DNA from: Acidimicrobiia bacterium | GTDB lineage: Bacteria > Actinomycetota > Acidimicrobiia > IMCC26256 > JACDBD01 | Length of the DNA stretch: 64,000 nucleotides | Assembly (NCBI GenBank): GCA_050743365.1 | Contig: JBOGFI010000072.1 | Location: 25,667 to 89,666 of the forward strand | Direction: 5' to 3' | Part shown: one piece after another, positions 9,436 through 49,683 of the stretch | Layout: each line of letters starts with the position of its first letter | Numbering within the stretch: the stretch's first letter is position 1 | Translations under genes and position numbers: made by a program | Notes under the pieces: generated by a model | What the model was told of the DNA's origin: nothing | Seen by the model: the letters and a program-made list of their open reading frames with translations, nothing else | Database searches by the model: none

Positions 9436-9438
9436 TCC

Positions 9439-10155
9439 GTGGGAGCACGCATCGAGCGGCTCGACTGGGACAGTGCCTTCTTCGGCGTACCGATCGTGCG
9501 GGTGCGGTCCGACGCGTCTGACGACCTCGATGCCGTCGCCCGCGAGGCGGATGCCGACGACGTGGCTTGCACGTACTTGATGACGGAGCCACCCTCGATC
9601 GGCGGCGCGGGCGCGCCCGAGCAGGCAGGGTTCTTCCTCGTCGACGTGCAACTCGAGCTTGTCCGCTCACTTCAGGACGCGATTGCCCACGACCACGCCC
9701 CGGTTCGGGCCGGGAGGCCCGCGGACGCCGCCGGACTCGACCCGGTACTCGACGAGCTGGCGCCCTGGAGTCGATTCGCCGTCGATCCCGGTTTCGGTCT
9801 CGCGGCCGCGCGCCGCTTGTACGGGGCGTGGCTCGAGCGCGCCCTTCGTCACGAGGACGAGCTCGTGCTCGTCGCCGAACACCACGAGCAGCCCATCGGG
9901 TTTGTTACGTGCGCATTCGACCCGGAGCCCACCATCGGTCTCATCGGCACGACCGAATCCGGGCGCGGGACCGGGAAGGCGCTGTTCGCCGGCGTCGTGG
10001 CTAGGGCGCGCGAACACCGCGAAACCCGCTCGCTGCACGTCCGTACCCAGGCGCGGAACGTCCGCGCGCTCAGCTACTACGCGCGAGTCGGGTTCGCTGT
10101 CACCGCCGCGCAGTACGTGTACCACCGTTGGCACGACGAAGGCCCTCGACCTTGA
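9439..10155 (+). CDS. GNAT N-acetyltransferase, WecD (dTDP-fucosamine acetyltransferase)-like
   Basis: The N-terminal LDWDSAFFGVPIVRV matches, from memory, the WecD LxWxxxFFG pattern. The C-terminal GNAT core is GRGTGKALF. Confidence 0.7.
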   Translation: MGARIERLDWDSAFFGVPIVRVRSDASDDLDAVAREADADDVACTYLMTEPPSIGGAGAPEQAGFFLVDVQLELVRSLQDAIAHDHAPVRAGRPADAAGLDPVLDELAPWSRFAVDPGFGLAAARRLYGAWLERALRHEDELVLVAEHHEQPIGFVTCAFDPEPTIGLIGTTESGRGTGKALFAGVVARAREHRETRSLHVRTQARNVRALSYYARVGFAVTAAQYVYHRWHDEGPRP

Positions 10156-13764: not shown

Positions 13765-13775
13765 CAACCGACGCG

Positions 13776-14885: not shown

Positions 14886-17074
14886 GCTCCCAGGCGCCCG
14901 GTACGCTTCGCCGGGTGAGCGTCGAGGCCGTCACCGCTGCGCCGGCGCAGCCACGGATCTCGGTCGTGATCCCCACCTGGAAACGGGCGGCATGGTTGGA
15001 TCGGTGCATCCGGGCGGTCGCGGAGCAGGATCCTCCACCCGCCGAGATCATCGTGGTCGGCCGGGCGGAGGACATGCAGGCGCGCGAGGTCGCTGGTCGT
15101 CTCGACGTCGAGTTCACGGTCCCGGTTTGCTGGATCGAGGTCGACAGACCCGGTCACGTCGCCCCGGTCGAGCGCGGCGTCGAGGTCGCGCGTTTCGAGC
15201 TCGTTGCGTTGATCGACGACGATGCCGTGCCCCAGCCGGGCTGGCTGCGAGCGATCGTCGCTCCCTTCGACGATCCGAGCGTCGGATGCGTCGGCGGTCG
15301 CGTCGTCGTGCCCGACGGCATTCGACCCGCCGACGAGCGTCTGGTCGTGCGCGAAGACGCCGGGACGCTGCGTTGGTACGGCAAGCTCGTCGGCAATCTC
15401 GGCGAGCTCGACCACGCCGGGGTCAGCGAGCGAGACACGGTCGTCGAGTGCAACTGGGTGTGGCGACGAAGCCTGCTCGCGGCCCTCGAGGTCGATCCCA
15501 TCGTGGACCACGACGAAGCGGCCTTCTACGGACTCGACCTCACGCTCCAGGCTCGTGCCCTCGGGTTCCGTACCCTGTACGAACCGCGTGCGCGCGTCGA
15601 CCACTACCTCGCACCGCGTGACGAGCAGCTGGTCCGTGAGGACCGTCGAGCGCGAGCACGCGCGGCGTCGCGCAACTTCACGTATCTCGCGCTCAAGCAT
15701 TTCGGTGCACTGCGCAAGGCGGCCTTCCTCTGCTGGTCGTTCCTGATTGGAGCACGCCGCCAGCCGGGGCTCGCGGCAAGCGCACTCGTGCTCGCGGAGC
15801 GTCCGGGTGCCTGGCGCGAGATCCGCGCCGCTTGGCAGGGGAAGCTGGAGGGCCTCACGGCGGCGCTCTCGACTCGACGACCGGATCTGCTGGTGTCGAG
15901 GGGGTCGACGACGAAACCGCGGATCGTCGTGTTCGACGCGTTCCCGACCCAGTTCTTCGGGCCTTACTACCGCTGGCTCACGGCATCCGAGCGCGTCGAC
16001 CTGACCGTCGTGTACTGGGAGACGGCGGAAACGGAGCACGTGATCGACCCGGAGCTCGGCCGAGCGCCGGTATTCGACATCCCAATCACCGGTGGATACC
16101 GCGACTACGTCATGCGTCGCGGGCCACGCGGCGTGCTCGACTGTTGGCGATGGACACGTCAGGCACGTGACGCCGACGCCGTGCTGCTCTCGGGCTGGGC
16201 GCGACCACGCGAGCTCACCCTCCTCGCGTTCGGCCACCTGCGTGGCCTCCCGATGCTCGTCACCAGCGACGTGACGCCGCTCTACGACGACTCCGCACGA
16301 CGACCGTCGCTCCGGCGGCGGGCACTCCGACGTCTCGTCCGCACCATCCCCGGGTTCATGGCCACCGGATCGCTGGCGCGCGAGCACTTGACGAGCCTCG
16401 GCGTTCCCGAGGACCGCATCTTCTTTCGCCCGTATGCGCCTGACAACGCCGCCTTCGCGGCCGCGACGGCGGCAGAACGCGCTGCGCGGGCCGCGCGGCG
16501 CGCCGCACTCCGCATCGCGTCCGATGCCCGGGTCGTGTTGGCGATCGCCAAGCTGGTCGAGCGAGAGGGTGTCGACGAGCTCATCGACGCGCTTGCGGCC
16601 GTTCGAACGCCTGGTCTCGTCTGCGTCGTCGTCGGCGACGGTCCGATGCAAGAGCGGCTCGAGCGCACCGTCGAACGCGACGGCACGAAGGTGCTGTTCG
16701 TCGGCTACCAGCCGTACTCGGTACTGCCGCGCTTCTACGCGCTCGCCGATCTGTTTGTCCACCCAGCCCGGCGTGAGTCGTGGGGCGTCTCGGTGAACGA
16801 GGCGATGGCGAGCGGCGTTCCGGTCGTCGTCTCGAACATGGTCGGCTCCGGCTACGACCTCGTGCGCGAAGGGGTCACCGGCTCGACCTACCCGTCAGGC
16901 GATTCGAAGGCACTGGGAGCCGCGATCGACGACTTCTTCGGCAAGTCCGACACGGAACGTGCGGCGATGGCGGCTGCTGCGCAAGAGTGGGTCGACGGGT
17001 GGAGCTTCGCTCGCGCTGCCGACGAGCTCGATCGCGCGGTCGACTTCCTCTACTCCGCGCGATCGACACGATGA
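14882..17074 (+). CDS. Two-domain glycosyltransferase (N-terminal GT2 fused to C-terminal GT4)
   Basis: GTGA overlap at 14882. The N-terminal part has ISVVIPTWKRAAWLDRCIRAV...LIDDDAVP (GT2). The C-terminal part has VVVGDGPMQERL...FVHPARRESWGVSVNEAMASGVPVVVSNMVGSGYDLVREGVTG (GT4). Confidence 0.75.
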   Translation: MSSQAPGTLRRVSVEAVTAAPAQPRISVVIPTWKRAAWLDRCIRAVAEQDPPPAEIIVVGRAEDMQAREVAGRLDVEFTVPVCWIEVDRPGHVAPVERGVEVARFELVALIDDDAVPQPGWLRAIVAPFDDPSVGCVGGRVVVPDGIRPADERLVVREDAGTLRWYGKLVGNLGELDHAGVSERDTVVECNWVWRRSLLAALEVDPIVDHDEAAFYGLDLTLQARALGFRTLYEPRARVDHYLAPRDEQLVREDRRARARAASRNFTYLALKHFGALRKAAFLCWSFLIGARRQPGLAASALVLAERPGAWREIRAAWQGKLEGLTAALSTRRPDLLVSRGSTTKPRIVVFDAFPTQFFGPYYRWLTASERVDLTVVYWETAETEHVIDPELGRAPVFDIPITGGYRDYVMRRGPRGVLDCWRWTRQARDADAVLLSGWARPRELTLLAFGHLRGLPMLVTSDVTPLYDDSARRPSLRRRALRRLVRTIPGFMATGSLAREHLTSLGVPEDRIFFRPYAPDNAAFAAATAAERAARAARRAALRIASDARVVLAIAKLVEREGVDELIDALAAVRTPGLVCVVVGDGPMQERLERTVERDGTKVLFVGYQPYSVLPRFYALADLFVHPARRESWGVSVNEAMASGVPVVVSNMVGSGYDLVREGVTGSTYPSGDSKALGAAIDDFFGKSDTERAAMAAAAQEWVDGWSFARAADELDRAVDFLYSARSTR

Positions 17075-18642
17075 CCACAGTAACGCATGCAGCACGCCGA
17101 GCTCGCACGGTTCTGGGGCCGTCCGCGATACTCGTGGCGCTCTGCGGCGCCGTGATCGGCGCCGCCGTGTCGAACTCGGCGCTCGATGCGCGATTGCGTG
17201 TGATCGTTCAGCTGCTCGCCGGCGCCATAGTGCTCGCGCTCGTCGTCCCGCTCATCCTCGGACGCTGGCGCGTGCTGCTCGGCTCCCTCTTCGCATGGCT
17301 CGTCGTCGAGGATCTCCTCCGAAAGCTCGCCGGCAACGACCTTCGCCTCTACTTCGTCAAGGACGTGATCTACCTGCTCGTGTTGATCGGGCTCGCGACC
17401 GATCCCGGCGTGCGCAGCACGTGGACGAGGGCGACCGGCCGTACCCGCTGGGCCCTGTACGCGCTGATCGGTTGGGGCCTCGCGCTCTCGGTCGCGTCGT
17501 TCTTCGAGAACCCGGTCCTGCCCGCAGTCGGCATGCGCCTCCACTTCTTGTACGTCCCGCTTGTTGTCGCCGGATTCCTCATGGCACGTGACTCGGCGCG
17601 CGTACGACGCTGGCTCGTCGGGCTCGCGACGCTCGCCGCCGCCGCGTCGATCGTCGGAATCATCCAGGCGGTCGTCGGCCCCGACTTCCTGTCACCGGGC
17701 CAGCCGACCGACCTTCAGCACCTCGAGCTCACCCGGCGGACGCTCAGTGGTCGCGAGCTCTTCCAGCCTTCGGGTCCATTCGCGGATCCCGGTCGCCTCA
17801 TCGCCGCGTCCGTGGTCGGCGTCACGGTCGCGTTCGCTGCCTTCGTCGGCTGGCGCAAGCAAGCCCGCGGTCCGATCTTGCTCGGCATCGTCTGCGCCGC
17901 GGGGACGTGGGCAGCGAGCGGGAAGGCAGGCGTGATCCTGGTCGGCACGCTCGCGCTCGCGACGATCGTGAGCCTCCGTTTCGGGTCTCGTGAGCGTCGC
18001 GTCAGGTGGGCCATGGGCACCGCAACCGTGTTGATCGTGGCGCTCGTCGCTCTGGCCGCCGCGTTCCCCGGTCTCTTCCGTGATCGCGTCGAGTACTTCG
18101 CGCAGACGCTCAGCCCGACCTCCCCCGTGAACGAATGGAGCGACCGATTCGACGCGTGGGAGTCCGACATCGCTCGGGGTATTGCGATCGGCGGGCTCCT
18201 CGGCACGGGCACCGGCCAGGAGTCGCTTGGACGCCAGTACATCTTCGGTGACGAGACCGATGAGCGCCGCCTTTCGCAAGTCGAAGGCGGTTACGCGTCG
18301 CTAGCGGTCGAATGGGGCCTTATCGGCATCGGGCTCTGGCTCGTTTGGAGCATCTCCTGGACACGTCGCCTGTGGCGATCGGGCAAGCGACTCCGGGGCA
18401 GCTCCCTCGCGTCGGCCACTTTCGTGCTTTTCGCCTGGGCGGTCATGGTGCTCTTCGTACGGTTCATGACAGGGCTGAGCTCGTGGCAGGACTACCTCCC
18501 GAACGCCTACTTCTGGTTCCTGTCGGGCGTGGTGTTCGGGCTCGCGAGCTGGTCGGGGACGCAGGCCGATGCGCAGATGGCCCGCGCGGAGCCGTCCGCT
18601 CGGATCGGCACCGCGTACCATCCGGATCCTGTCGTGAGGTAG
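17071..18642 (+). CDS. O-antigen polymerase/ligase-like (Wzy-type) polytopic membrane protein
   Basis: ATGA overlap at 17071-17074; the track ORF 16780.. is over-extended. It encodes about 523 aa with many TM segments and one larger loop. It is the last gene of the + operon. Confidence 0.7.
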   Translation: MTTVTHAARRARTVLGPSAILVALCGAVIGAAVSNSALDARLRVIVQLLAGAIVLALVVPLILGRWRVLLGSLFAWLVVEDLLRKLAGNDLRLYFVKDVIYLLVLIGLATDPGVRSTWTRATGRTRWALYALIGWGLALSVASFFENPVLPAVGMRLHFLYVPLVVAGFLMARDSARVRRWLVGLATLAAAASIVGIIQAVVGPDFLSPGQPTDLQHLELTRRTLSGRELFQPSGPFADPGRLIAASVVGVTVAFAAFVGWRKQARGPILLGIVCAAGTWAASGKAGVILVGTLALATIVSLRFGSRERRVRWAMGTATVLIVALVALAAAFPGLFRDRVEYFAQTLSPTSPVNEWSDRFDAWESDIARGIAIGGLLGTGTGQESLGRQYIFGDETDERRLSQVEGGYASLAVEWGLIGIGLWLVWSISWTRRLWRSGKRLRGSSLASATFVLFAWAVMVLFVRFMTGLSSWQDYLPNAYFWFLSGVVFGLASWSGTQADAQMARAEPSARIGTAYHPDPVVR

Positions 18643-36624: not shown

Positions 36625-37551
36625 TCACCACTCGACGTCGGGGTAGAAGTGGCGGGCGAGTTCCGTCGTGCCTTCCTGCACTCGGCCGACCTCGTCGTCG
36701 GTGAGGCGTGACCGCCAGGCCTCGATGTTCCCCGCCGAGTCACGCTGAATTTGGTAGGGGTCGCCTTCGGGAGCCTCCGTGGGGTTGTCGGCGCTGCTGT
36801 GCTTCCGGATGACTGCTTCGGCCGCCGGCGTCATCTCCACATCAAGTGCCCGATACATGGCGCGAAAGCCCTCGATGGGGGCGGCGGACAGGTCTTCGTG
36901 CCGGATGAACTGCCAGTCGGGCCGACGTTGCTGGGTGACTCGGATCACCTCGTGGGTGACGACCCACGCCAGGACAGCGCCGTCGAAGGGGTCGTGCGGG
37001 CCGCGTAGCGCCTCGAGTCGCTCGCGATGCTGCTGCAGGTACACCTTCACGAGCTCCGGCTGGTCGAGGAACTTACCGAAGTCGTGAGTCCAGCCCACTC
37101 GCATGATGCTGGAGACGAAGGCCGCAGGGTGGCGAATCATGATCACGACCTGCATTCCGAACGTGTCAGCAAGCCATTCCGCCGAGAACAGCGCGATGGG
37201 ATCCTTCATCAGCGGGCGCAGGCCCGCGCGCCGTGCCTGCGACGCGCGACGGCCGGCAGCGACCACTTGCCGGACCTGTTTTCGGGTCCGGCAGGTCCGC
37301 AACTCCTTGTCGATCCGGTAGCGCAACTGGAGGGTGCGCTCAATCGGTGTCTTGAAGCTCGCCTCATTCGCCGGGTGGACGAACGTGAACCCACGGAAGG
37401 GAGCATCACAGAATCCCGGCCGGGGGATCTCTGGGTTGAAGGGCTCGTGGAGATAGGCGAACGATCCCGAAGCCTCGAGCATCCGACCCACCCAGGTCGT
37501 ACCGGACCGGTGCGACCCGGACACGAGCACAGGACTCGCCACCGTAGCCAT
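36625..37551 (-). CDS. Sulfotransferase family protein
   Basis: The N-terminal PAPS 5'-phosphosulfate loop is VLVSGSHRSGTTWVG. The 3'-phosphate region is IMIRHPAAFVSS. The gene is convergent with thrC. Confidence 0.8.
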   Translation of the reverse strand: MATVASPVLVSGSHRSGTTWVGRMLEASGSFAYLHEPFNPEIPRPGFCDAPFRGFTFVHPANEASFKTPIERTLQLRYRIDKELRTCRTRKQVRQVVAAGRRASQARRAGLRPLMKDPIALFSAEWLADTFGMQVVIMIRHPAAFVSSIMRVGWTHDFGKFLDQPELVKVYLQQHRERLEALRGPHDPFDGAVLAWVVTHEVIRVTQQRRPDWQFIRHEDLSAAPIEGFRAMYRALDVEMTPAAEAVIRKHSSADNPTEAPEGDPYQIQRDSAGNIEAWRSRLTDDEVGRVQEGTTELARHFYPDVEW

Positions 37552-37741: not shown

Positions 37742-37870
37742 ATGGCCCAACGACTAGCCTTCGCGCGCAGCGTGGTCGTGGAAGGCGTCGCCGCCCACGA
37801 CGATCCCCGTCGGCGCGCGTGTCGCGAGGAGTTCATCGCATCGACAGCTGACGTCCGTGGAGGCGCGTGA
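37742..37870 (+). CDS. Possible upstream small ORF (42 aa) translationally coupled to rfbF
   Basis: ATG at 37742 lies 5 nt after GGGGAG. Own translation: MAQRLAFARSVVVEGVAAHDDPRRRACREEFIASTADVRGGA. Its stop overlaps the rfbF start (TGATG). GC3 is only moderate (about 30 of 42 codons end in G or C), so coding status is uncertain. Confidence 0.25.
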   Translation: MAQRLAFARSVVVEGVAAHDDPRRRACREEFIASTADVRGGA

Positions 37871-38640
37871 TGAAGGTCGGCATCCTGGCGGGCGGGCTGG
37901 GCACGCGCCTGGCCGAAGAGACCGAAGCCCTTCCCAAGCCGATGATCGAGATCGGCGGGAAGCCGATGCTGTGGCACATCATGAAGCACTACGCACACCA
38001 CGGCTTCTCCGACTTCGTCATCGCGCTCGGCTACAAGGGCGAGGTCATCAAGCGCTACATGGTCGAGTACTGCTCGCTGACGAGCAACCTCACCGTCCAC
38101 CTCGGCGAGGGGAGGGTCGAGCTGCACGAGGGGGAGCGCGAGAACTGGACCGCCGAGCTGATCGAGACCGGCTTCTACACCGCCACCGCAGGCCGCATCA
38201 AGCGACTCGCTCCTTACCTCGACGACGGCACGTTCCTGCTCACGTGGGGTGACGGCGTCTCCGACCTCGACCTCGAGGACCTCCTCGCCTTCCACCGCTC
38301 GCACGGCCGGCTGGCGACGCTGACCGCCGTCCGGCCCCCGGCTCGGTTCGGGCACATGGAGCTCGACGACGACGTCGTCACCGAGTTCTCGGAGAAGCCG
38401 CAGACCGGTGAGGGCTGGATCAACGGCGCGTTCTTCGTGCTCGAGCCGGGGGTGTTCGACTACGTCGAAGGCGACGACACGCAGTGGGAGCGCGAGCCGC
38501 TCGAGAACCTGGCCAAGGACGGCCAGCTCATGGCCTATCGCTACTCGGGCTTCTGGCAGTGCATGGACACCGTGCGCGACAAGAAGACCCTCGAGCGGCT
38601 CTGGGCGACGGGCGAGGCGCCCTGGAAGGTCTGGGACTGA
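37870..38640 (+). CDS. rfbF: Glucose-1-phosphate cytidylyltransferase
   Basis: The N-terminus [57 protein letters not shown] closely follows the RfbF N-terminus. GGAGG lies 6 nt upstream of ATG 37870. The track start is GTG at 37867. Confidence 0.9.
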
Positions 38641-38645
38641 TCGGC

Positions 38646-39707
38646 ATGCGAGTCCTGGTCACCGGCCATCAGGGGTACATCGGCGTCCGGCTCGCCCCGC
38701 TGTTCCGGTCGGCCGGCCACGACGTCGTGGGCCTCGACAGCGGGCTGTTCGACGACTGCACCCTCGGCCCGGCCGGCCCCGGCATCGACACGCTGGAGCG
38801 CGACGTCCGTGACGTGACCGCCCGCGACCTGCGCGGCTTCGACGCCGTGGTGCACCTCGCCGGGATCTCGAACGACCCGCTGGGCGACCTCGACCCCGAC
38901 TGCACGTACGACATCAACCATCGGGGGACCGTCCACCTCGCCGAGCAGGCGAAGGCGGCGGGGGTCGCGCGCTTCCTCTTCTCGTCGTCGTGCAGTCTCT
39001 ACGGCGCGGCCGGCGACGCGATGCTCGACGAGCAGGCGGAGTTCAACCCCGTGACGCCGTACGGGTGGTCGAAGGTGCTGGCCGAACGGGATCTCGGTGT
39101 CCTGGCCGACGACGGGTTCTGTCCCGTCTTCCTCAGGAACGCGACCGCCTACGGGGTGTCGGCCCGGCTGCGCGGCGACCTGGTCGTCAACAACCTGGTG
39201 GGCTACGCGGTGACAACGGGAGAGGTGTTCCTCAAGAGCGACGGGTCGCCGCTGCGGCCGCTGGTCCACATCGAGGACATCGCCCGCGCCTTCCTCGCCC
39301 TCCTCGAGGCGCCGCGCGAGCTCGTCCACGGCGAGGCGTTCAACGTGGGCGTCAGCAGCGAGAACTACCGAATCAGGGAGGTCGCCGCGCTCGTGGAGGA
39401 GCTGGTGCCGGGAAGCCGGGTCGTGTTCGCGCAGGACGCCGGCCCCGACCGGCGGAACTACCGGGTGAGCTGCGACAAGCTCGCGGCCACCATGCCGGCG
39501 TTTCGGCCGCAGTGGACCGTCCGGGCCGGCATCGAGGAGCTGGTCGCCGCCTTCGGCGCCGCCCGGCTCACGCTCGACGACCTCACCGGCTCCCGGCTCC
39601 AGCGGATCCAGCACGTCAAGCGGCTGCTGGACGAGCACAGGCTCGGTCCCGACCTGAGATGGCGCGAGGCCCGGGCAGGTGCCAGGGCGACGGCGGCGCA
39701 TGGCTGA
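38646..39707 (+). CDS. NAD-dependent epimerase/dehydratase (SDR)
   Basis: ATG at 38646 gives [16 protein letters not shown]. Motifs are SSSCSLYG and YGWSKVLAE (YxxxK). Confidence 0.85.
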
Positions 39708-40953
39708 GGGACCGCTGCCGCGCGCAGCGGCCTCGTGCCGGTCGTGTGGCGCGGACCGGCTCCGGCCGTTCCTCGATCTCGGCGAGACGCCGCTCGCCGA
39801 CGCCCTGGTGCGGCCGGGGGACCTCGCCAAGCCCGAACCGAGGTTCCCGCTGGTGGTGGCGTTCTGCCCCGAGTGCACGCTCGTGCAGATCCTCGAGGAG
39901 GTGCCGCCCGAGAAGCTCTTTGTCGAGAACTACCTCTACTTCTCGTCGTTCTCCGACGATCTGCTCGACCACGCCCGGCGCCATGCGCTCGACCTCGTCG
40001 ATCGCCAGGGGCTCGGTGCGAGCAGCCTCGCGGTCGAGCTCGCGAGCAACGACGGCTACCTCCTGCGCAACTTCGTCGACCGGGGCGTGCCGGTGCTCGG
40101 GATCGACCCCGCGCCCGACCAGGCCGAGGCGGCGGAGGCCGCCGGGGTGCCGACGATCCGCGAGTTCTTCGGCGTCGAGCTGGCGAAGCGGCTCGTCTCC
40201 GAGGGGCGGCGCGCCGACGTGATCGTGGCGAACAACGTGATGGCACACGTGCCCGATCTCAACGGGTTCGTCGAGGGAATGGAGATCCTGCTCGCCGACG
40301 ACGGGGTCGCCACGATCGAGAACCCGTACGTCCGGGACCTCGTCGAGCACGTCGAGTTCGACACCATCTACCACGAGCACTTCTGCTACTTCTCCTGCAC
40401 CGCCGTCGACGCCCTGATGCGGCGTCATGGCATGTTCCTCAACGACGTCGAGTACTTCCCGGGTCTCCACGGGGGGACCTTGCGGTGGTGGGTCGGGAAG
40501 CGGGAGCAGCCGTCCGAGACCGTCCGGCGCTACCTCGACGAGGAGCGCGCCACCGGCGTGACCGACTTCTCCTATTACCGCGATTTCGCCGAGCGCGTGG
40601 TTGCGATCAAGCGCGATCTGCTCGAGTTGCTCCGCGAGCTGAAGAGCGACGGCGCCCGGATCGCCGCTTACGGCGCCGCCGCCAAGGGCAGCACCCTCGT
40701 CAACTACGTCGGCATCGGCCCCGAGGTCGTCGACTTCGTCGTCGACCGCAACCTCCACAAGCAGGGCCTGTGCATGCCGGGAGTGCATCTCCCCATCCGC
40801 GACCCGGCTGCACTGCTCGATGAGCGACCCGAGTATGTGTTGCTCCTCGCCTGGAACTTCAAGGACGAGATCATGCGCCAGCAGGCCGAGTACCGGGAGC
40901 GGGGCGGTCGGTTCGTGGTGCCCGTGCCCGCCCCCACGGTGGTCTCGGCGTGA
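39700..40953 (+). CDS. TylCIII-type nucleotide-sugar methyltransferase (Zn-ribbon, SAM MTase and C-terminal Rossmann-like domain); module M0
   Basis: ATG at 39700 overlaps the SDR stop (ATGGCTGA). Motifs are CRSCG...[31 protein letters not shown] and DRNLHKQG. Confidence 0.85.
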
Positions 40954-42143
40954 GCGGCAGGGCCGCGACCGATGCTGCCTGCCCGGCGTGCGACGCGATC
41001 GGGATGGACGTTTTCCACGAGCAGGACGGCGTTCCCGCCCACAGCGTGCTCCTGCTGCCGAGCCGTGACGAGGCTCTCGGCTATCCGACCGGCGACCTCA
41101 GGCTCGGCTTCTGCCGCTCTTGTGGGTTCATCTCGAACCTGGCCTTCGACGTCGCGCTCAACGAGTACTCCCAGCGCTGCGAGGAGACGCAGGGGTTCTC
41201 GCCGCATTTCCGGGCCTGGCTGCGGGGACTGGCCGAGGGGTTCGTCGACCGCTACGACCTGCGGGGCAGGGACGTGCTCGAGATCGGGTGCGGGAAGGGC
41301 GAGTTCCTCGCCCTCGTCTGTGAGCTCGGCGCCGGCCGCGGCACCGGGATCGATCCTGCCTACGTGCCTGATCGACTCGAGAGCGAGGCCGCCGATCGCC
41401 TGACGTTCATCACGGAGCTCTACTCGGAGGCGTACGGGCACCTGGTCGGCGACGCCGTCGCGTGCCGCCACACGCTCGAGCACATCGCTCCCGTCGCAGA
41501 GTTCGTCCGCACGGTGCGGCGCTCGCTCGCCGACCGCGACGACGTGATCGTCTTCTTCGAGCTGCCCGAGACCCTCAGGGTGCTGCGCGAGATTGCGTTC
41601 TGGGACATCTACTACGAGCACTGCTCGTACTTCACCCCCGGCTCCCTCACCCGCCTCTTCCGGCGCGAGGGCTTCGACCCGATCGACCTCCGCCTCGACT
41701 ACGCCGACCAGTACGTCCTCCTCGACACCCGGCCGGGGACAGGCCGGGGGCCGCAACTTCCGCTGGAGGACGACCTCGCCGAGACTGCTCGCCTCGTCGA
41801 CCACTTCCGGCGGGTGTTCCCCGAACGGGTGGAGGAGCTCGCAGCGACGATTCGCGCCGTGCACGCCGGCGACGGCCATACCGTGATCTGGGGAGCGGGC
41901 TCGAAGGGCGTGGCGTTCCTCACGACGCTGGGGGTCTCGGAGGACGAGATCGAGTACGCCGTGGATATCGACCCGTACAAGCAGGGCATGTTCATGGCCG
42001 GGACGGGCCAGGAGATCGTCGCCCCCGCCTTCCTCGCCGACTACCGGCCCGATCTCGTGCTGGTCATGAATCCCGTGTACACGGACGAGATCGGGCGGGA
42101 GCTCGAGTCGATGGGTCTCGCTCCCAAGGTCGTGGCGGTGTGA
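40950..42143 (+). CDS. Zn-ribbon SAM-dependent methyltransferase, same architecture as M0; module M1
   Basis: GTGA overlap at 40950. Motifs are CPACD...CRSCG, LEIGCGKGEFL, HTLEH, WDIYYEH, WGAGSKG and DPYKQG. Confidence 0.8.
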   Translation: MSGRAATDAACPACDAIGMDVFHEQDGVPAHSVLLLPSRDEALGYPTGDLRLGFCRSCGFISNLAFDVALNEYSQRCEETQGFSPHFRAWLRGLAEGFVDRYDLRGRDVLEIGCGKGEFLALVCELGAGRGTGIDPAYVPDRLESEAADRLTFITELYSEAYGHLVGDAVACRHTLEHIAPVAEFVRTVRRSLADRDDVIVFFELPETLRVLREIAFWDIYYEHCSYFTPGSLTRLFRREGFDPIDLRLDYADQYVLLDTRPGTGRGPQLPLEDDLAETARLVDHFRRVFPERVEELAATIRAVHAGDGHTVIWGAGSKGVAFLTTLGVSEDEIEYAVDIDPYKQGMFMAGTGQEIVAPAFLADYRPDLVLVMNPVYTDEIGRELESMGLAPKVVAV

Positions 42144-44713
42144 GCGAGCTCTCCGGCCGCTCGGAGTGCGTGACGTGCGGGAGTGAGGCGCGGACGCGCG
42201 TCCTCTCGCTGGAGTCGATGCCGGCGCTGATCAACCAGCGTTTCCCCGACGCCGCCTCGGCGCGGTCGGCTCCGCGGGGCGACGTGGAGCTCTTCCTCTG
42301 CGATGAATGCGGGATGATCGCCAACGCCGCCTTCGACCCCAAGCTGGTGGAGTACAGCCCCGCCTACGAGAACTCGCTGCACTTCTCGCCCACCTTCGAG
42401 CGCTACGCCGAGGGCCTGGCCAAGCGCCTGGTCGAGACGTACGACCTCCACTACAAGGTCGTCGTGGAGGTGGGGTGCGGCAAGGGCGAGTTCCTGTCTC
42501 TGCTCTGTCAGGCCGGGAACAACCGCGGCGTCGGCTTCGACCCGAGCTACGGCGGTGAGCTCGACGACTTCAGCGCCGCCCGGCACATGCGATTCGTGCC
42601 CCAGCTCTTCCCGGAGCCCACGCACACGAGCTTTGTGGACCTCGTCTGTGCCCGCCACGTGCTGGAGCACACTGCCGATCCGAACCTGTTCCTGCACCGC
42701 ATCGCTCGCGCAGTCGGCAATCAACAGGCCGTCGTCTACCTCGAGGTCCCCAACGCGACGTACATGCTTCGTAGCCTCGCCGTGTGGGACGTGATCTACG
42801 AGCACGTGCTGTACCTCTCGCCGGTGTCGCTCGCGCGGCTCGTACACGAGCAGGGCTTCGACATCCGTGCCCTCGGTACGGCGTTCGACGCCCAGTACCT
42901 CTTCGTCGAAGCCCAGCCGTCCACAGGGCACGCCTCGGGTCGCCGCGACGACAGTGCCATCGCCGAGCTCCGAGAGCTGGCGGCGCGCTTCGAAGCCCAC
43001 CTCCGGACCACCGTCGACACCTGGCGCTCCCGTCTCGAGGAGCTCGAAGGTCGCGGCCGCCGGATCGCGCTCTGGGGCGCCGGTTCCAAGGGCGGCACGT
43101 TCCTCAACGTCGTCCCCGGCGCTGACCTTATCGAGTGGGTGGTCGACGTCAATCCTCGCAAGCAGGGGACCTTCATCACGGGGACGGGGCATCGCATCGT
43201 GGCGCCCGAACAGCTCGCGGGCGTTTCGCCTGACGTGGTCATCGTGCTCAACCCCATCTACGTGCCCGAGGTCTCTGGCCGGCTCCGAGAGCTGGCGATC
43301 GACGCCGAGGTGATCGGGCCCGGGGCCGAGCCGGTCTCCGATGCCGGATCAGGCGAGGTCGAGATCGACCTACGAGACGACACCGCGCGACCGGGGAGTG
43401 ACGTCCGAACCCGCGTCGGGGCGTCGGCAAGCTCGGGCTGCGTGACCTGCAGGGGCGAGACGCTGACGCCCGTCCTCCGGATCGAGTCGGTCCCCGCGCT
43501 CGTCAACCGGCGCTGGCACGACGCCGAGTCCGCGCGAGCAGCCCCGCGGGGCGCCATCGAGCTCGTCCTGTGCGAGGAATGCGGGATGATTTACAATGCC
43601 GCCTTCGATCCGAGCCTCGTCGAGCACACCGCTGCGCACGAGAGCTCGCTCCACTTCTCGCCGACCTTGGCGCGACACGAGCAGTCGGTGGCCGAACGGC
43701 TCATCAAGACGTACGACGTTCGTGGAAAGGAAGTGCTCGAGATCGGCTACGGGAAGGGCGAGTTCCTCGAGCTCATCTGCGCCGCGGGCGGCAACCGCGG
43801 CGTCGGCTACGACCCCAGCTACGACGGGGAGCTCGACGACGTCGCGGCGGCACGGAACATCCGGTTCGTGCGCGAGCTCCTCCCGGAGGCCGGCCACGCC
43901 AGAGCGGCCGACCTGGTCTGCTCCCGGCACGTGCTCGAGTACGACCCCGAGCCCAGGGCGTTCCTCGGCCGGTTGGGGCGGGCCATCGGCGACGCCTCGA
44001 CGATCCTCGACTTCGAGGTCCCCGATGCGCTGTACATGCTGCGCGAGCTCGCGATCTGGGGCGTCAGCTACGAGCAGCCGCTGTACTTCTGCGCCCCCTC
44101 CCTCTCGCGGTTGGTCCGCGAGATGGGGTTCGAGGTCGTCGAGACGGGGCCCACCTTCGGCGGGCAGTACCTCTATCTGCAAGCTTCGCGACCGGGCGGT
44201 CCGGGCTCCGTCGCGCCGGCCGCCGAGGTCACGGCCGAGCTGTGGGAGCTGGGCAGGTCGTTCGGTCGCGGCTTCGAGGCCGTTGTGCAGATCTGGCGTG
44301 AGCGCCTCGAGGAGCTCGAACGTGAAGGTCGCCGGGTGGCGCTCTGGGGCGCCGGGTCCGAGGGCGTGACCTTCCTCAACGTCGTGCCCGGCGCCGACCG
44401 TCTCGAGTGGGTCGTCGATATCAACCGCCGGAAGCAGGGGGCGTTCGTCGCCGGCACCGGGCAGCGCATCATGGCGCCCGAACAGCTCGCGAGCGCGTCA
44501 CCGGACGTGGTGATCGTCCTCAACCCGCTCTACGCCTCCGAGGTCCGTGCCTGGTTGCGAGAGCTGGCCATCGACGCCGAGGTGATCGGGCCTGGGGGCG
44601 CGCCGGTCTCCGATAACGGATCAGGCAGGGTCGAGATCGATCTACGCGACGACACCGCGCCCGGCGTCGGACGCGGGCACCGGAGGGACGAAAGTGCTCA
44701 CGACTCGCGATAG
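42140..44713 (+). CDS. Two-module methyltransferase fusion (M2-M3), 857 aa
   Basis: GTGA overlap at 42140; the first part of track ORF 41462.. is an artefact. M2 carries CVTCG...CDECG, VEVGCGKGEFL, HVLEH, WDVIYEH and WGAGSKG. The linker is GPGAEPVSDAGSGEVEIDLRDDTARPGSDVRTRVGASASSG. M3 carries CVTCRG...CEECG, LEIGYGKGEFL, HVLEY, WGVSYEQ and WGAGSEG. Confidence 0.75.
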   Translation: MSELSGRSECVTCGSEARTRVLSLESMPALINQRFPDAASARSAPRGDVELFLCDECGMIANAAFDPKLVEYSPAYENSLHFSPTFERYAEGLAKRLVETYDLHYKVVVEVGCGKGEFLSLLCQAGNNRGVGFDPSYGGELDDFSAARHMRFVPQLFPEPTHTSFVDLVCARHVLEHTADPNLFLHRIARAVGNQQAVVYLEVPNATYMLRSLAVWDVIYEHVLYLSPVSLARLVHEQGFDIRALGTAFDAQYLFVEAQPSTGHASGRRDDSAIAELRELAARFEAHLRTTVDTWRSRLEELEGRGRRIALWGAGSKGGTFLNVVPGADLIEWVVDVNPRKQGTFITGTGHRIVAPEQLAGVSPDVVIVLNPIYVPEVSGRLRELAIDAEVIGPGAEPVSDAGSGEVEIDLRDDTARPGSDVRTRVGASASSGCVTCRGETLTPVLRIESVPALVNRRWHDAESARAAPRGAIELVLCEECGMIYNAAFDPSLVEHTAAHESSLHFSPTLARHEQSVAERLIKTYDVRGKEVLEIGYGKGEFLELICAAGGNRGVGYDPSYDGELDDVAAARNIRFVRELLPEAGHARAADLVCSRHVLEYDPEPRAFLGRLGRAIGDASTILDFEVPDALYMLRELAIWGVSYEQPLYFCAPSLSRLVREMGFEVVETGPTFGGQYLYLQASRPGGPGSVAPAAEVTAELWELGRSFGRGFEAVVQIWRERLEELEREGRRVALWGAGSEGVTFLNVVPGADRLEWVVDINRRKQGAFVAGTGQRIMAPEQLASASPDVVIVLNPLYASEVRAWLRELAIDAEVIGPGGAPVSDNGSGRVEIDLRDDTAPGVGRGHRRDESAHDSR

Positions 44714-44758
44714 GGGCGCGATGCCCAAGAGCCCGCGTGCACCCGACACCGGCCCGGC

Positions 44759-45985
44759 ATGACCCGGGTCGGCGCGTCGGGAGGCTCTGCGTGCGTGACG
44801 TGCAGGGGGGAGGCGCTGACGCGCGTCCTCCGGGTCGAGTCGGTCCCGGCGCTCGTCAACCGGCGCTGGCCCGACGCGGAATCCGCGCGAGCAGCCCCGC
44901 GGGGCGACATCGAGCTGGTCCTGTGCGAGGAATGCGGGACGATACACAATGCCGCCTTCGATCCGAGCCTCGTCGTGTACACCCCTGCATACGAGAACTC
45001 GCTCCACTTCTCGCCGACCTTCGAGCGGCACGCGCACTCCGTTGCCGAACGGCTCGTCAAGACGTACGACGTTCGTGGAAAGGAAGTGCTCGACATCGGC
45101 TGCGGGAAGGGCGAGTTCCTCGAGCTCATCTGCGCCGCCGGCGGCAACCGCGGCGTCGGCTACGACCCCACCTACGACGGGGAGCTCGACGACGTCGCCG
45201 GCGCGCGGAACCTCCGGTTCGTGCGCGAGCTCTTCCCGGAGATGGGGCACGCGAGGGGGGCCGACCTGGTCTGCTCCCGGCACGTGCTCGAGCACGATCC
45301 CGAGCCCAGGGCGTTCCTCGGCCGGCTGGCCCGGGCCATAGGCGACGCTCCGACCATCCTCGACCTCGAGGTCCCCGATGCCCTCCACATGCTGCGCGAG
45401 CTCGCGATCTGGGACGTCATCTACGAGCACCCGTTGTACTTTTGTGCCATCTCCCTCTCGCGGCTGGTCCGCGAGATGGGGTTCGAGGTCCTCGAGACGG
45501 GACCCACCTTCGGCGGGCAGTACCTTTATCTGCAAGCGGCGCGATCGGGCACTCCGGACTCCGTCGGGCCGGCTGCTGACGTCACCGCCGAGCTGCGGGA
45601 GCTGGGCAGGTCGTTCGGTCGCGGCTTCGACGCGGTTGTGCAGATCTGGCGTGAGCGCCTCGAGGAGCTCGAACGTGAAGGTCGCCGGGTGGCGCTCTGG
45701 GGCGCCGGGTCGAAGGGCGTGACCTTCCTCAACGTCGTGCCCGGCGCCGACCGTCTCGAGTGGGTCGTCGATATCAACCGCCGGAAGCAGGGGGCGTTCG
45801 TCGCCGGCACCGGCCAGCGCATCGTGGCGCCCGAACAGCTCGCGAGCGCGTCACCGGACGTGGTGATCGTCCTCAACCCGCTCTACGCCTCCGAGATCCG
45901 TGCCTGGTTGCGAGAGCTCGCCATCGACGCCGAGGTGATCGGGCCGGAGGACGCGACTCGAGCCCGCCACCGTCTGGCGCGATGA
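44759..45985 (+). CDS. Zn-ribbon SAM-dependent methyltransferase; module M4
   Basis: 408 aa. Motifs are CVTCRG...CEECG, LDIGCGKGEFL, HVLEH, WDVIYEH, WGAGSKG and NRRKQG, all in canonical form. Confidence 0.85.
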   Translation: MTRVGASGGSACVTCRGEALTRVLRVESVPALVNRRWPDAESARAAPRGDIELVLCEECGTIHNAAFDPSLVVYTPAYENSLHFSPTFERHAHSVAERLVKTYDVRGKEVLDIGCGKGEFLELICAAGGNRGVGYDPTYDGELDDVAGARNLRFVRELFPEMGHARGADLVCSRHVLEHDPEPRAFLGRLARAIGDAPTILDLEVPDALHMLRELAIWDVIYEHPLYFCAISLSRLVREMGFEVLETGPTFGGQYLYLQAARSGTPDSVGPAADVTAELRELGRSFGRGFDAVVQIWRERLEELEREGRRVALWGAGSKGVTFLNVVPGADRLEWVVDINRRKQGAFVAGTGQRIVAPEQLASASPDVVIVLNPLYASEIRAWLRELAIDAEVIGPEDATRARHRLAR

Positions 45986-47892
45986 TCGTCGGCTCGACCT
46001 GGGTGCCCATGCCTCTGTCACGACGACACTTCATCGCCGCCGGCTTCGGGTTGGTGGCAGGCGGCGTCGCCGCTGCCTGCCAGTCCGGGGGGCCGAGCCG
46101 ACGGTCACGAAATCCCGTGCCGGCGGGCCGGTGGAGCAACCCCGCAACCTGGGGTGGTGCCGTCCCCCGTCGCGGCGCGCACGTGGTGGTGGACCGGGCG
46201 GTGCTCGTCGACGTCGACGCCGAGGTGGCCAGCCTCACCATCAGCCCGGTAGGGACGCTGGTCTTCGACCCTGAGGGCGGACGCACCCTCGAGAGCGAGG
46301 GCAACGTCGTCGTCCACGGACGCCTCGCCATGCGCCCGGCGACGGCGTCGGCCGAGCACCGGCTCGTGTTCAGGGGCGTCGACGAGCGGCGCTTCGCCGG
46401 TGGTGGCATGGACCCGTTGGACTCCGACGTGGGCCTGTGGGTCATGGGCGCGGGGGTGCTCGACGCCGCCGGCACCCCGAAGCGGGCATGGTCGCGTCTC
46501 GCCGAGCCTGCCCGCTTCGGGACGAGCAGCATCACCGTGGCCGACCCCTCGGGCTGGCAGGCGGGCGACGAGATCGTCGTCACCCCGACCGAGGCCCCGT
46601 CCCTTCCCGAGCATCACCTGCGCCACGATCGCCGCCGCATCGCCTCGATCTCGGGGACCGAGATCGAGCTCGACACTCCTCTCGACTTCCCACACCCCGC
46701 CGTCGAGGTCGCGCCCGGGCACACGATGAGGGCCGAGGTCCTGAACCTGACCCGGAACGTCCGGATCGAAGGCACCCCCGACGGGCGTGCCCACGTGTTC
46801 ATTCGAGCCGGCCGCCAGACGATCTCCCACGTCGAGCTCGCCCACGTCGGTCCTCGCCAGCCGACGCCCGACCCGCAGGCGGACAGCCAGAAGGTGCTCG
46901 GTCGCTACGGCCTTCACTTCCACCATTGCGGCGACGGCTCGAGTGGCTCGACGGTCGAGGGCTGCGTCATCCGCGACGCCGGCAACCACGCCTTCGTGCC
47001 CCACACCTCCCACGGAATCACGTTCCGCGACTGCATCTCCCACGACACCATCGAGAAGCCGTACTGGTGGGACGAGTCCGAGCTCACCGACGACACGCTC
47101 TTCGAGCGCTGCGTCGCCAGTCGCTCGCGCCACGATCCCGACTCGCGCGGCTACGGCCACGAGGCATTCCTGTTCGGAGCCGGGGAGGGAAACCGGGCCC
47201 GGGACTGCGTGGCTTCGGGCATCTCGGGCGGCTTCGGTGGCTTCGGCTGGGACGCGCTCCACCCCCAGTCCGTATGGCCCGAGGCATCCGGCCTCGTCGC
47301 CCACAACATCAATGGCCCGGGCATCAAGGTGTGGCAGAACAATTTCGAGTGCCACCACATCCGCGGCTTCGTCAGCTACCACAACTCTGGCGCAGGCATC
47401 GAGCACGGCGCCTACGGCAACAACTACCTCTACGAGGACGGCATCTGCTACGGCAACGGGGCTTCGCCCATCGATGTCCACGCGTCGTTTACCGCTCCGC
47501 GCTCCGATGACAACGGCAAGGTCTGCGACCAGCGACAGACCTACCGCCGTATCCATTGCGACGGCGGGGGTCGGGCTGAGTACGGCATTCAGTTCGGCCC
47601 TACCCCCGCAGGCGCGTCTGACGACGGCCAGCCGGTGCTCATCGAGGAATGCACGTTCGCCGGTACCACCCGAGCGAACGTCGGCATGGTTGGTCCCGGC
47701 TCCGACACGCCGATCCTCGTCGACGCCTTGCGCAACACGTATGGCGGGAACGCCTTCTGGCTCAACTCGGATGTGCCGGCGGGTTCCCAGATCAAGGTCG
47801 ACGACCCGACGCACCGCCGGGTCACGCTGCGGGCGGCCGGCCAGCCGGGGACACCCAATGCGGAGTGGAACGCCTCCGTCGAGAGCCCCTGA
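45982..47892 (+). CDS. Secreted G8-domain / right-handed beta-helix protein, probable Tat-exported lipoprotein
   Basis: ATGA overlap with M4 at 45982-45985. The N-terminus is MIVGSTWVPMPLSRRHFIAAGFGLVAGGVAAAC, with a twin-arginine motif and lipobox-like AAAC. The G8-like start is WSNPATWGGAVPRRGAHVVVDRAVLVD. Repeated NHAF, GHEAF and GAGIEHG beta-helix-like segments follow. Confidence 0.8.
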   Translation: MIVGSTWVPMPLSRRHFIAAGFGLVAGGVAAACQSGGPSRRSRNPVPAGRWSNPATWGGAVPRRGAHVVVDRAVLVDVDAEVASLTISPVGTLVFDPEGGRTLESEGNVVVHGRLAMRPATASAEHRLVFRGVDERRFAGGGMDPLDSDVGLWVMGAGVLDAAGTPKRAWSRLAEPARFGTSSITVADPSGWQAGDEIVVTPTEAPSLPEHHLRHDRRRIASISGTEIELDTPLDFPHPAVEVAPGHTMRAEVLNLTRNVRIEGTPDGRAHVFIRAGRQTISHVELAHVGPRQPTPDPQADSQKVLGRYGLHFHHCGDGSSGSTVEGCVIRDAGNHAFVPHTSHGITFRDCISHDTIEKPYWWDESELTDDTLFERCVASRSRHDPDSRGYGHEAFLFGAGEGNRARDCVASGISGGFGGFGWDALHPQSVWPEASGLVAHNINGPGIKVWQNNFECHHIRGFVSYHNSGAGIEHGAYGNNYLYEDGICYGNGASPIDVHASFTAPRSDDNGKVCDQRQTYRRIHCDGGGRAEYGIQFGPTPAGASDDGQPVLIEECTFAGTTRANVGMVGPGSDTPILVDALRNTYGGNAFWLNSDVPAGSQIKVDDPTHRRVTLRAAGQPGTPNAEWNASVESP

Positions 47893-48786: not shown

Positions 48787-49683
48787 ATGTCCGACGGTCG
48801 TCCCCGGGTAAGCGTCGGCCTTCCCGTGTACAACGGGCAGGCGTTCCTTGCCGAGGCAATCGAGTCGATCCTTGCCCAGGACTTCACCGACCTCGAGCTG
48901 GTCATCGGTGACAACGCGTCGACCGATGCGACTCCGGAGATCTGCCGCCGGTACCTCGGCGCCGATGGAAGGGTCTCGTACCTCCGTAGCGAGGTGAACC
49001 GGGGCGCGGCATGGAACTTCAGCCGGCTCGTGGACGCCGCCCGGGGCGAGTACTTCAAGTGGGCCGCCAGCGACGACGTTTGTGCGCCCACATACCTCTC
49101 TCGCTGCGTCGAGGTACTCGATCACCAGGCGGACGTCGTGCTCTGCTCGACGGGAACCGTCATGATCGACGAGCGGGGTCAACCGATCGGGCCGCTGGAG
49201 ATCACGAACCACGGGACCGCGGGCGAGCCGGCGGAACGATTTCGGGATCTTGTGCTCCGGCCGCACAAGGCCTTCTCGGTGTTCGGCGTGATCCGACGAG
49301 ACGCCCTCTGCGAAACGCCACGGCTGGGCGCCTACACGGCATCCGACCTGGTGACACTGGCCGAGCTCGCGCTCAGGGGGCGGTTCCACGAGGTGCCGGA
49401 ACCGCTGTTCTTCAACCGTGACCACGGCGGGCGCTCGATCCGCGCGAATCCCACCTACAAGGCGAGGCAACCCTGGTTCGATCCGAACCGGGCGGGCAGG
49501 ATCACGCTTCCTCGGTGGCGGCTTGGCATCGAATACGCGCGGGCAATCGGTCGCGCTCCGCTGTCCTCCGTTCAGCGGAGGCAGGCGTACGAAGCACTCG
49601 CGAGGTGGAGCTGGGCCAATGGGCTGTCACTCGGCAACGACATCGTTCGCGCGGCCCGCGACCTGGGCCGGTTCTCTCAGTAG
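48787..49683 (+). CDS. Glycosyltransferase family 2
   Basis: The N-terminus is MSDGRPRVSVGLPVYNGQAFLAEAIESILAQDFTDLELVIGDNASTDAT. It is a paralogue of 52955..53893. Confidence 0.85.
   Translation: MSDGRPRVSVGLPVYNGQAFLAEAIESILAQDFTDLELVIGDNASTDATPEICRRYLGADGRVSYLRSEVNRGAAWNFSRLVDAARGEYFKWAASDDVCAPTYLSRCVEVLDHQADVVLCSTGTVMIDERGQPIGPLEITNHGTAGEPAERFRDLVLRPHKAFSVFGVIRRDALCETPRLGAYTASDLVTLAELALRGRFHEVPEPLFFNRDHGGRSIRANPTYKARQPWFDPNRAGRITLPRWRLGIEYARAIGRAPLSSVQRRQAYEALARWSWANGLSLGNDIVRAARDLGRFSQ

Follow-up and report, generated by a model that had tools for sequence, protein, structure and literature searches.

We analysed a 64,000-nt stretch of Acidimicrobiia DNA (hereafter the window; contig JBOGFI010000072.1 of assembly GCA_050743365.1, a short-read metagenome-assembled genome, about 70% G+C), in which five methyltransferase modules, M0 to M4, lie in a row on the forward strand. 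Two of them, M2 and M3, are fused into one protein of 857 amino acids, and M3, its C-terminal half, has lost residues that are invariant among homologues. The interpretation that we favour, at a probability of about 0.5, is that M3 is a catalytically dead module under relaxed constraint. In this account, the last methyltransferase of a conserved sugar cassette was amplified to three copies in this Acidimicrobiia clade, and the middle copy, M3, was fused in frame to the C-terminus of M2 when a stop-containing spacer was lost, leaving a flexible linker of about 27 residues. Already in the clade ancestor M3 had diverged by a Cys to Tyr change in motif I, a Lys to Glu change in the GAGSKG loop and a TLARHEQ patch; in this genome it has also lost both invariant histidines, a conserved Asp and the Tyr/Asn loop, residues that line the active site in TcaB9-type enzymes. 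An M3 without detectable protein-level constraint would amount to domain-level pseudogenisation inside an otherwise functional open reading frame (ORF), the activity presumably being supplied by M2 and by the intact near-duplicate M4. That the frame of M3 is still open may reflect the shortness of the branch; alternatively, a premature stop in M3 may be disfavoured, as it would shut off M4 and the downstream genes. The array consists of the following features.

39679..40953, forward strand (gene-caller start 39700): M0, a canonical TylCIII/TcaB9-type nucleoside diphosphate (NDP)-hexose C-methyltransferase by its Pfam profile matches
40950..42143, forward strand: M1, a member of an unnamed sister subfamily with zinc ribbon, class I methyltransferase core and partial Methyltransf_14 domain (Pfam, module alignment)
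42140..43345, forward strand: M2, the N-terminal half of the 857-residue fusion, with all conserved motifs intact (match to the subfamily hidden Markov model, HMM, at 42155-43318)
43346..43426, forward strand: the M2-M3 linker, fusion residues 403-429, predicted to be disordered (AlphaFold 2 predicted local distance difference test, pLDDT, below 50 over residues 403-405 and 407-429)
43409..44713, forward strand: M3, the C-terminal half of the fusion, with fold and zinc-ribbon cysteines retained and the active site degenerate (alignment, AlphaFold 2)
44711..44758, forward strand: the TAG stop of the fusion and a 45-nt spacer, with M3 and M4 in the same reading frame
44759..45985, forward strand: M4, an intact M2-type methyltransferase and the closest paralogue of M3 (alignment; orthologues P0011-P0013, 88-92% identity)

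To evaluate the state of M3, 264 single-module homologues were aligned with the window modules, and columns that were at least 90% conserved were taken as conserved. We found that M3 deviates at 9 of 65 such columns, compared with 1 of 66 in M4, 1 in the M4 orthologues and 2 of 66 in M2, where one of the two is the GTG start. Among the homologues themselves the median number of deviations is 2, the 95th percentile 6 and the maximum 10. At the ten changed positions listed below (window position of the codon, strand, change), the residue that M3 carries occurs in none of the 264 homologues.

43625, forward strand: Y73H; Y in 263 of 264 homologues
43637, forward strand: Y77H; Y in 261 of 264, aligned with Y76 of TcaB9
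43643, forward strand: N79S; N in 252 of 264
43667, forward strand: F87L; F in 258 of 264
43748, forward strand: C114Y, in SAM (S-adenosylmethionine) motif I; C in 193 (73%), S in 55 (21%), A in 11 and Y in 0 of 264
43940, forward strand: H178Y; H in 264 of 264, aligned with H181 of TcaB9
44060, forward strand: D218G; D in 254 of 264
44066, forward strand: I220S; I in 233 of 264
44075, forward strand: H223Q; H in 264 of 264, aligned with H225 of TcaB9
44360, forward strand: K318E, in the GAGSKG loop; K in 252 (95%) and R in 11 (4%) of 264

The relation of these positions to the active site was assigned from the mutant sequences and entry titles of TcaB9 structures in the PDB, which include Y76F, H181N, Y222F, E224Q, H225N and the double mutant H181N/E224Q; mutants at exactly these positions indicate that the TcaB9 investigators treated the residues as active site. 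H225 has reportedly been proposed as the catalytic base of TcaB9. In a HMMER alignment to 3NDI, M2 and M4 hold all five counterparts of TcaB9 Y76, H181, Y222, E224 and H225, and M1 holds the H, Y, E and H counterparts, with a Cys in the Y76 column. M3 retains Y221 and E222, which align with Y222 and E224, and is without the other three (Y76, H181 and H225), as well as without the conserved Asp and the Lys of GAGSKG, a loop that opens the C-terminal Methyltransf_14 domain, taken to be the part that binds the nucleotide sugar. The four zinc-ribbon cysteines, the motif I glycines and the motif II Asp are kept. Given the loss of both invariant histidines, the conserved Asp and the Tyr/Asn loop, M3 in this genome has most likely lost methyltransferase activity. 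A first-pass annotation of the window, made from the DNA letters, had singled out five motif changes as specific to M3 among otherwise near-invariant positions. All are present in M3 (GYGKG, HVLEY, WGVSYEQ, GAGSEG and AHESSLHFSPTLAR), although M1 does not share AYENSLHFSPTFER (AYENS...TFER).

Four contigs from other metagenomes (L002 to L005) reproduce the arrangement and allowed us to separate older from younger changes. On L002, a 2.4-kb contig, the last part of M2 leads through an in-frame linker into a complete M3, which closes with a stop and is followed by the first part of M4; the fusion protein of this contig (P0002) is 78% identical to that of the window. L003 and L005 have the same M3 tail, TAG, spacer and M4, L004 has an M3 end overlapping M4, and L003 and L004 run on into the beta-helix gene that follows M4. 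What can be said of M3 at clade level is thus drawn from L002 and from the partial M3 of L004, which covers the C-terminal region only. F87L, E88A and A91E (the TLARHEQ patch), C114Y and K318E are common to the M3 of L002 and that of the window, and K318E is also found in L004. Y73H, Y77H, N79S, H178Y, D218G, I220S and H223Q occur only in this genome, and the M3 of L002 still reads HVLEH, WDVIYEH and AYENS. Compared with M4, the M3 of L002 differs at 8 of 123 aligned codons, and seven of these eight are in the 86-92 patch or at codon 114. The M3-lineage differences have outlasted gene conversion of their flanks, which suggests a long-standing functional distinction. Gene conversion may also have acted between M2 and M3, in addition to that between M3 and M4, as M2 and M3, which are non-adjacent paralogue types, both have PRKHD in place of the conserved PRKQG motif in the lineage of L002 and L004. 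Among the genome-specific changes, His and Tyr are exchanged in both directions (H62Y, Y73H, Y77H and H178Y; window 43592-43942), in or adjoining the predicted active site.

The evolutionary rates were assessed by counting changes unique to one sequence, with the conserved columns set in advance. Pairwise ratios of nonsynonymous to synonymous divergence (dN/dS) ranged from 0.22 to 0.36 among M4 orthologues and from 0.44 to 0.55 whenever M3 was one of the pair. The four M4 branches, pooled, had 33 nonsynonymous and 28 synonymous changes, with none in conserved columns where 15.4 were expected under neutrality (p=2e-7) and an omega of 0.49 elsewhere. The window M3 branch had 21 nonsynonymous and 8 synonymous changes; omega was 1.36 in the conserved columns (6 observed vs. 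4.4 expected if neutral) and 0.78 in the others (15 observed vs. 19.1 expected; P=0.21 for a value below 1, with just 8 synonymous events), so that neither class of columns on this branch differs from neutrality. The first-pass annotation had stated that an M3-branch dN/dS equal to those of M2 and M4 would speak against degeneracy. The M3 branch does differ, and in the direction of lost constraint: 6 of its 21 replacements fall at conserved columns, compared with 0 of 33 for the M4 orthologues (Fisher p=0.002). The L002 M3 branch had 19 nonsynonymous and 16 synonymous changes.

The replacements in M3 appear clustered. In post hoc windows around three motifs (36 codons) there were 10 nonsynonymous and 2 synonymous changes (omega ~3.9, Poisson p=3.5e-4), and codons 62-79 had six replacements and no synonymous change. 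The latter pattern led us to discard the idea that the M3 changes were brought in from a divergent donor by gene conversion. An unbiased scan statistic for clustering gave p=0.065. Since the motif windows were chosen after the fact, the scan was not significant and the pre-defined partition fits neutrality, we do not report positive selection on the M3 motifs as a result, and treat it as a lead.

The fusion ORF spans 42140-44713 and has one stop only. Elsewhere in the array, neighbouring genes overlap by 4 nt (GTGA at M0/M1 and M1/M2, and ATGA between M4 and the next gene). The M2/M3 junction is open and 81 nt shorter than the M3/M4 junction, with gaps of 48 and 33 nt that are both in frame and the stop among the lost part. 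The window linker can still be aligned with the stop region of the M3/M4 spacer, and the linker of L002 has a different in-frame form that retains PGVGHGHQRDAGA; taken together, these suggest that the fusion arose through loss of a stop-containing spacer and that the linker was afterwards trimmed differently in the two lineages. The first-pass annotation had already described the single 857-residue ORF, the contrast between a stop with 45 nt of spacer at M3/M4 and a shorter, open M2/M3 junction, and a probable deletion of the spacer; the ORF and the contrast were confirmed, the former also by L002, and the deletion fits the junction alignments. The TAG of M3 is kept in L003 and L005, and the spacing from M3 to M4 is in frame in L005 and out of frame in L003. 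In the window, the 15 codons between this TAG and the ATG of M4 are all sense codons in the same frame (44711-44761), and the array is therefore one stop away from encoding a three-module protein. In L003 (203-342, ~100 nt) and in L005 (276-314, ~45 nt) the spacer before M4 preserves the remains of an M1-type 3′ end (...DLVIVMNPAYRGEIGREPESIGLAPKAVAA), which ends in ...GLAPKVVAA and is followed by the ATGA overlap; the window spacer holds only a short remnant of it. These relics indicate that the duplicated unit would originally have begun inside M1.

In the AlphaFold 2 model of the fusion the mean pLDDT was 87.8 and both modules were mostly above 90, while the linker (residues 403-429) and the M3 tail (835-857) were disordered. 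The predicted template modelling score (pTM) of 0.56 means that the packing of M2 against M3 is not confident; the single-module homologues in the input all aligned to the M3 half, leaving the M2 half with a shallow alignment. The three proteins that match M4 over its full length in the PDB, MtmC (4RV9, 4.9e-20), KijD1 (5T64, 8.2e-16) and TcaB9 (3NDI, 6.1e-10), were also matched by the fusion model in Foldseek (E 1e-23 to 1e-27, target-normalised TM scores 0.79-0.82).

Several observations weigh against a dead M3. All 434 codons of M3 are free of stops and frameshifts, which pure decay might have introduced, and their third-position G+C is coding-like (0.89), although the branch is itself short (~3% synonymous divergence). 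When whole modules are compared, the contrast in nonsynonymous and synonymous counts between the window M3 and M4 is not significant (Fisher p=0.11). The M3-specific residues that are conserved despite gene conversion, together with the M4-like counts of the L002 M3 (19/16), indicate that a distinct function is, or once was, associated with the M3 lineage, and the concentration of replacements at active-site motifs, including the His/Tyr swaps, could reflect remodelling rather than decay. The inactivity of M3 would moreover be a conclusion by homology, in a subfamily (M1 to M4) without a characterised member. We considered a broader hypothesis, in which M3 is a selected module, either non-catalytic or re-tooled, that works in cis with M2 in a widespread CDP-hexose pathway, shared with S. 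meliloti pSymB, that installs several methyl groups; selection would have remodelled its active site, as the His/Tyr swaps and an omega above 1 near the motifs would suggest. We regard this hypothesis as tentative and rather less than evenly probable. If it were true, M3 would be the first pseudo-methyltransferase partner in nucleotide-sugar or glycan tailoring.

In one rival explanation, which we judge unlikely but worth serious consideration, M3 is a selected pseudo-enzyme without catalysis, maybe still able to bind SAM, that has been retained in cis to support or regulate M2 as its partner, the covalent pseudo-heterodimer mimicking the homodimer that some family members form. The title of the KijD1 entry in the PDB, 'converted to monomeric form', implies that the native protein is a dimer, but the TcaB9 and MtmC entries have one chain each and argue that dimerisation is not general in the family, and AlphaFold gave no confident arrangement of the two modules across the disordered linker. 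The intact frame and the confidently predicted fold of M3 would be expected of a retained partner, as would its zinc-ribbon cysteines, motif I glycines, motif II Asp, Y221 and E222, but the frame is also explicable by the short branch or by polarity on downstream genes. Recurrence of the fusion, again with M4 after it, in a relative whose fusion protein is 78% identical, persistence of C114Y, K318E and the 86-92 patch across two or three lineages amid flanks homogenised by gene conversion, and the M4-like constraint on the M3 of L002 all point to selection on the lineage; on the branch that loses the catalytic residues, however, no partition of M3 has an omega significantly below 1. The first-pass annotation had proposed a pseudo-enzyme held as one half of an active partner: degeneracy at catalytic and ligand-binding positions stands, with residues found in none of the 264 homologues, but retention as a partner is left unsupported by the neutral-like branch and the pTM of 0.56.

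A second rival explanation, in which M3 is a re-tooled and still active enzyme whose active site has been remodelled by positive selection for a new substrate or chemistry, seems to us distinctly doubtful. The excess of nonsynonymous over synonymous changes at the active-site motifs is what such remodelling would produce, but it was obtained in motif windows picked after the data were seen, and it is not matched by the unbiased scan or by the pre-defined conserved columns, in which the observed number of replacements is close to the neutral one. The SAM-binding motifs are mostly retained, the exchanges between His and Tyr are reciprocal, and import from a divergent donor should have left synonymous changes in the flanks, where there are none; both histidines are nevertheless invariant across the homologues, where the M3 residues never occur at those positions, and K318E reverses the charge in the conserved GAGSKG loop. 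MtmC, among solved structures the closest to M2 and M4, is bifunctional, acting as methyltransferase and ketoreductase, and would be a precedent for a switch in chemistry. Finally, an artefact of assembly or of binning is very improbable as the cause of the fusion or the copy number: short reads do underlie the assembly, and M3 and M4 share 92% identity (98% in the final ~90 codons), but their longest identical run is just 100 nt, which short-read assembly can resolve, the identical 857-residue product (NCBI MGH9013455.1) is present on two contigs, one of them in GCA_975305365.1, and the contigs from other metagenomes span M2-linker-M3-M4 (L002) or M3-M4 (L003 to L005), in two cases (L003 and L004) reaching the next gene. 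The M2-M3 fusion is real, and the layout is no assembly artefact. Further relatives of M3 were not recovered: a scan of genome contigs with M3-derived patterns found none, a scan of metagenome contigs with the M3/M4 alignment returned distant loci only (at most 43% identity) and no further M3 orthologue, and a further protein search with M3 gave no M3 orthologue beyond P0002.

We also examined how the five modules are related to one another and to known families. All five have the CxxC...CxxC motif, the class I SAM core and the C-terminal Methyltransf_14 domain (Pfam and module alignment), in agreement with the four ORFs and five three-domain modules (39679-45985) of the first-pass annotation. 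It had called all five TylCIII-type, but only M0 is canonical, matching Methyltransf_13 at 85.6 bits, Methyltransf_23 at 55.2 bits and Methyltransf_14 over its full length at 201.5 bits. Against the Methyltransf_13 cut-off of 31.3 bits, the fusion protein scored 34.6 bits and the isolated N-termini of M1 to M4 13-27 bits; besides M0, only the M2 half of the fusion reaches the cut-off, and weakly. Methyltransf_14 was matched by M1 to M4 at 57-58 bits each over profile positions 43-147 of 160, and Methyltransf_23 and related models were above cut-off in every ORF of the array. NCBIfam provided no name for any of the five modules. M1 to M4 belong to a very large, unnamed sister subfamily, which counts 10,615 cluster representatives with a cut-off of E<=1e-3 and 1,671 with one of E<=1e-30, and whose members are labelled in their source records merely as 'SAM-dependent methyltransferase'. 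By architecture and active-site residues M1, M2 and M4 resemble TylCIII/TcaB9 enzymes, yet they form a subfamily apart.

Within the array, amino-acid identity is 85.5% between M3 and M4, 59.9% between M2 and M3, 60.8% between M2 and M4, 35-37% between M1 and M2 to M4, and 23-25% between M0 and the rest. At the nucleotide level M3 and M4 are 91.8% identical overall and 95.3% identical in the final third, and M2 is ~70% identical to both, with a synonymous divergence (dS) of ~0.7. A recent triplication of M2, M3 and M4, as first proposed, does not agree with these values: M2 is an old paralogue, and M3 and M4 alone are close to each other. Their 3′ thirds, which had been described as almost identical, are similar only.

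The distribution of homologous loci indicates what the array was derived from. Using the subfamily HMM and tblastn with the window proteins on loci recovered from metagenomes, we found that the two genes upstream of M0 belong to the same conserved group.

37867..38640, forward strand: an RfbF/DdhA-type glucose-1-phosphate cytidylyltransferase, cassette gene 1 (Pfam NTP_transferase)
38646..39707, forward strand: an extended short-chain dehydrogenase/reductase (SDR) of the NAD-dependent epimerase/dehydratase family, cassette gene 2 (Pfam Epimerase/GDP_Man_Dehyd)
48787..49683, forward strand: GT2b, a family 2 glycosyltransferase (GT2; Pfam Glycos_transf_2), a homologue of which ends the conserved cassette in other loci

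The order RfbF-SDR-M0-M1-M2, usually followed by a GT2, is present in L006-L010, L012 and L016 and partly in others, in DNA of 41-67% G+C; the GT2 follows the M2-type gene in L006-L010. In the best loci, identity to the window proteins is 71-73% for RfbF, 57-65% for the SDR, 51-62% for M0, 47-60% for M1 and 39-45% for M2. Over the wider set, RfbF is syntenic at 54-73% identity in L006-L010, L012, L015, L016 and others as well as on pSymB of Sinorhizobium meliloti, the SDR is syntenic at 51-65% (tblastn on recovered loci), and M1-type orthologues follow M0 in many loci at 47-60%. The SDR was considered as a canonical CDP-glucose 4,6-dehydratase and rejected as such (NCBIfam TIGR02622, 20 bits vs. 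a cut-off of 278); its score for the NCBIfam GalE model, 92.8 bits, is likewise below the cut-off of 262, and all its NCBIfam matches are sub-threshold. The other recovered loci never have more than three methyltransferase modules by the subfamily HMM, and the five in a row are thus the conserved cassette with its three methyltransferases, to which this lineage has added two further copies of the third.

The cassette is found across phyla, including cultured bacteria. On pSymB of S. meliloti 1021, RfbF, the SDR, M0 and an M2-type methyltransferase are consecutive (42-68% identity), with an M1-type methyltransferase and a GT2 nearby on the opposite strand, and Leisingera plasmids also carry the cassette. 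The pSymB genes have been named SMb21416 (ddhA), SMb21417 (ddhB) and SMb21418 (NDP-hexose 3-C-methyltransferase) (PMC4053727). Our literature search found no functional study of the S. meliloti cluster or of the cassette. In strain 1021 (L029, pSymB 683864-709003, with the cassette at 8835-18461) the tblastn match to RfbF/DdhA is split into two frames at ~9050, which may be a frameshift. Among proteins drawn from public metagenomes and genomes, parts of the cassette are naturally fused in pairs: M1-type with M2-type (P0003 and P0004), M2-type methyltransferase with GT2 (P0005-P0007) and SDR with M2-type (P0009). These fusions are an independent argument that the cassette proteins share one pathway. 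The first-pass annotation had been aware of no described system with such a layout, but its core is this widespread cassette, and two-module fusions exist elsewhere (Longibacter P0003). Because a C-terminal Methyltransf_14 domain is common to all three methyltransferase types, and their genes are in tight linkage with those for RfbF and the SDR, the cassette would make a CDP-activated, multiply methylated hexose, which the GT2 would transfer to a glycan exported by an ABC (ATP-binding cassette) transporter.

The surroundings of the array include a sulfotransferase, four GT2 glycosyltransferases and an ABC-2 permease/ATPase pair, from which we conclude that the setting is a glycan locus of the ABC-transporter type. 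The gene that follows M4 belongs to this context and lies outside the methyltransferase array.

45982..47892, forward strand: a G8/CEMIP beta-helix protein of 636 amino acids (Pfam G8, weak; CEMIP_beta-hel)

Its N-terminus resembles a twin-arginine translocation (Tat) or lipoprotein signal (RRHFIAAGFGLVAGGVAAAC), its translation is coupled to that of M4 by the ATGA overlap, and L003 and L004 have it in the same place behind M4. The protein may act in this locus as an enzyme that processes the glycan. A Sulfotransfer_3 family gene lies at 36625-37551 on the reverse strand, divergent from and immediately upstream of the cassette, and the glycan may be sulfated besides being methylated. For M4, the public annotation places the start at 44795, 36 nt downstream of 44759, giving a protein of 396 amino acids in which the first zinc-ribbon cysteine is lost. 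The ATG at 44759 is the likelier start, as it is conserved in the four related contigs, L002-L005.

The array exposes a widely distributed, conserved cassette that combines CDP-hexose activation, an SDR, a canonical C-methyltransferase, two methyltransferases of an unnamed subfamily and a GT2. Its presence in the genetically tractable S. meliloti 1021 (SMb21416 onward) makes the product identifiable by experiment, and this is perhaps a more useful lead than the array itself. M2, M3 and M4 in turn provide a natural series within one operon, with an intact enzyme, a copy that diverged with the clade and a copy without the invariant histidines. The array is therefore convenient for asking which residues the subfamily needs, and whether the fusion of a dead paralogue to a live one brings a benefit, does harm or is simply tolerated. 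Should M3 only be decaying, its history would be an ordinary one of duplication and degeneration.

Among known systems, the closest in build are the TylCIII-type NDP-hexose 3-C-methyltransferases TcaB9, KijD1 and MtmC (3NDI, 5T64 and 4RV9), which have the same four-cysteine zinc ribbon, SAM core and Methyltransf_14 domain. In contrast to these, M1 to M4 are just ~18-23% identical to them, have a partial Methyltransf_14 domain and are mostly below the Methyltransf_13 cut-off, and the pathway here would be CDP-linked whereas theirs is dTDP-linked. In its possible mode of working, M3 can be compared with METTL14, which partners METTL3, and with DNMT3L, which partners DNMT3A, both catalytically dead methyltransferase paralogues of an active partner. 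The likeness lies in a paralogue with the methyltransferase fold and without catalytic residues that is physically coupled to an intact one, and does not extend to family membership; the coupling here is covalent, through a disordered linker with no predicted interface, and the rate data fit drift as well as retention. The S. meliloti pSymB cassette differs from the array in having a single M2-type copy, no fusion and no degenerate module, and in the opposite orientation of its M1-type gene and GT2. Two complete three-domain modules per polypeptide, as in the window fusion, are also found in Longibacter salinarum CRI94_16655 (P0003, 820 amino acids) and in P0004 (815 amino acids). These proteins, however, join an M1-type module (module A) to an M2-type one, that is, two different steps, and at the positions where M3 has lost His, Asp and Lys both of their modules are intact, whereas the window joins two M2-type paralogues. 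Fusion of two M2-type paralogues, with one half degenerate, was found in this clade only.

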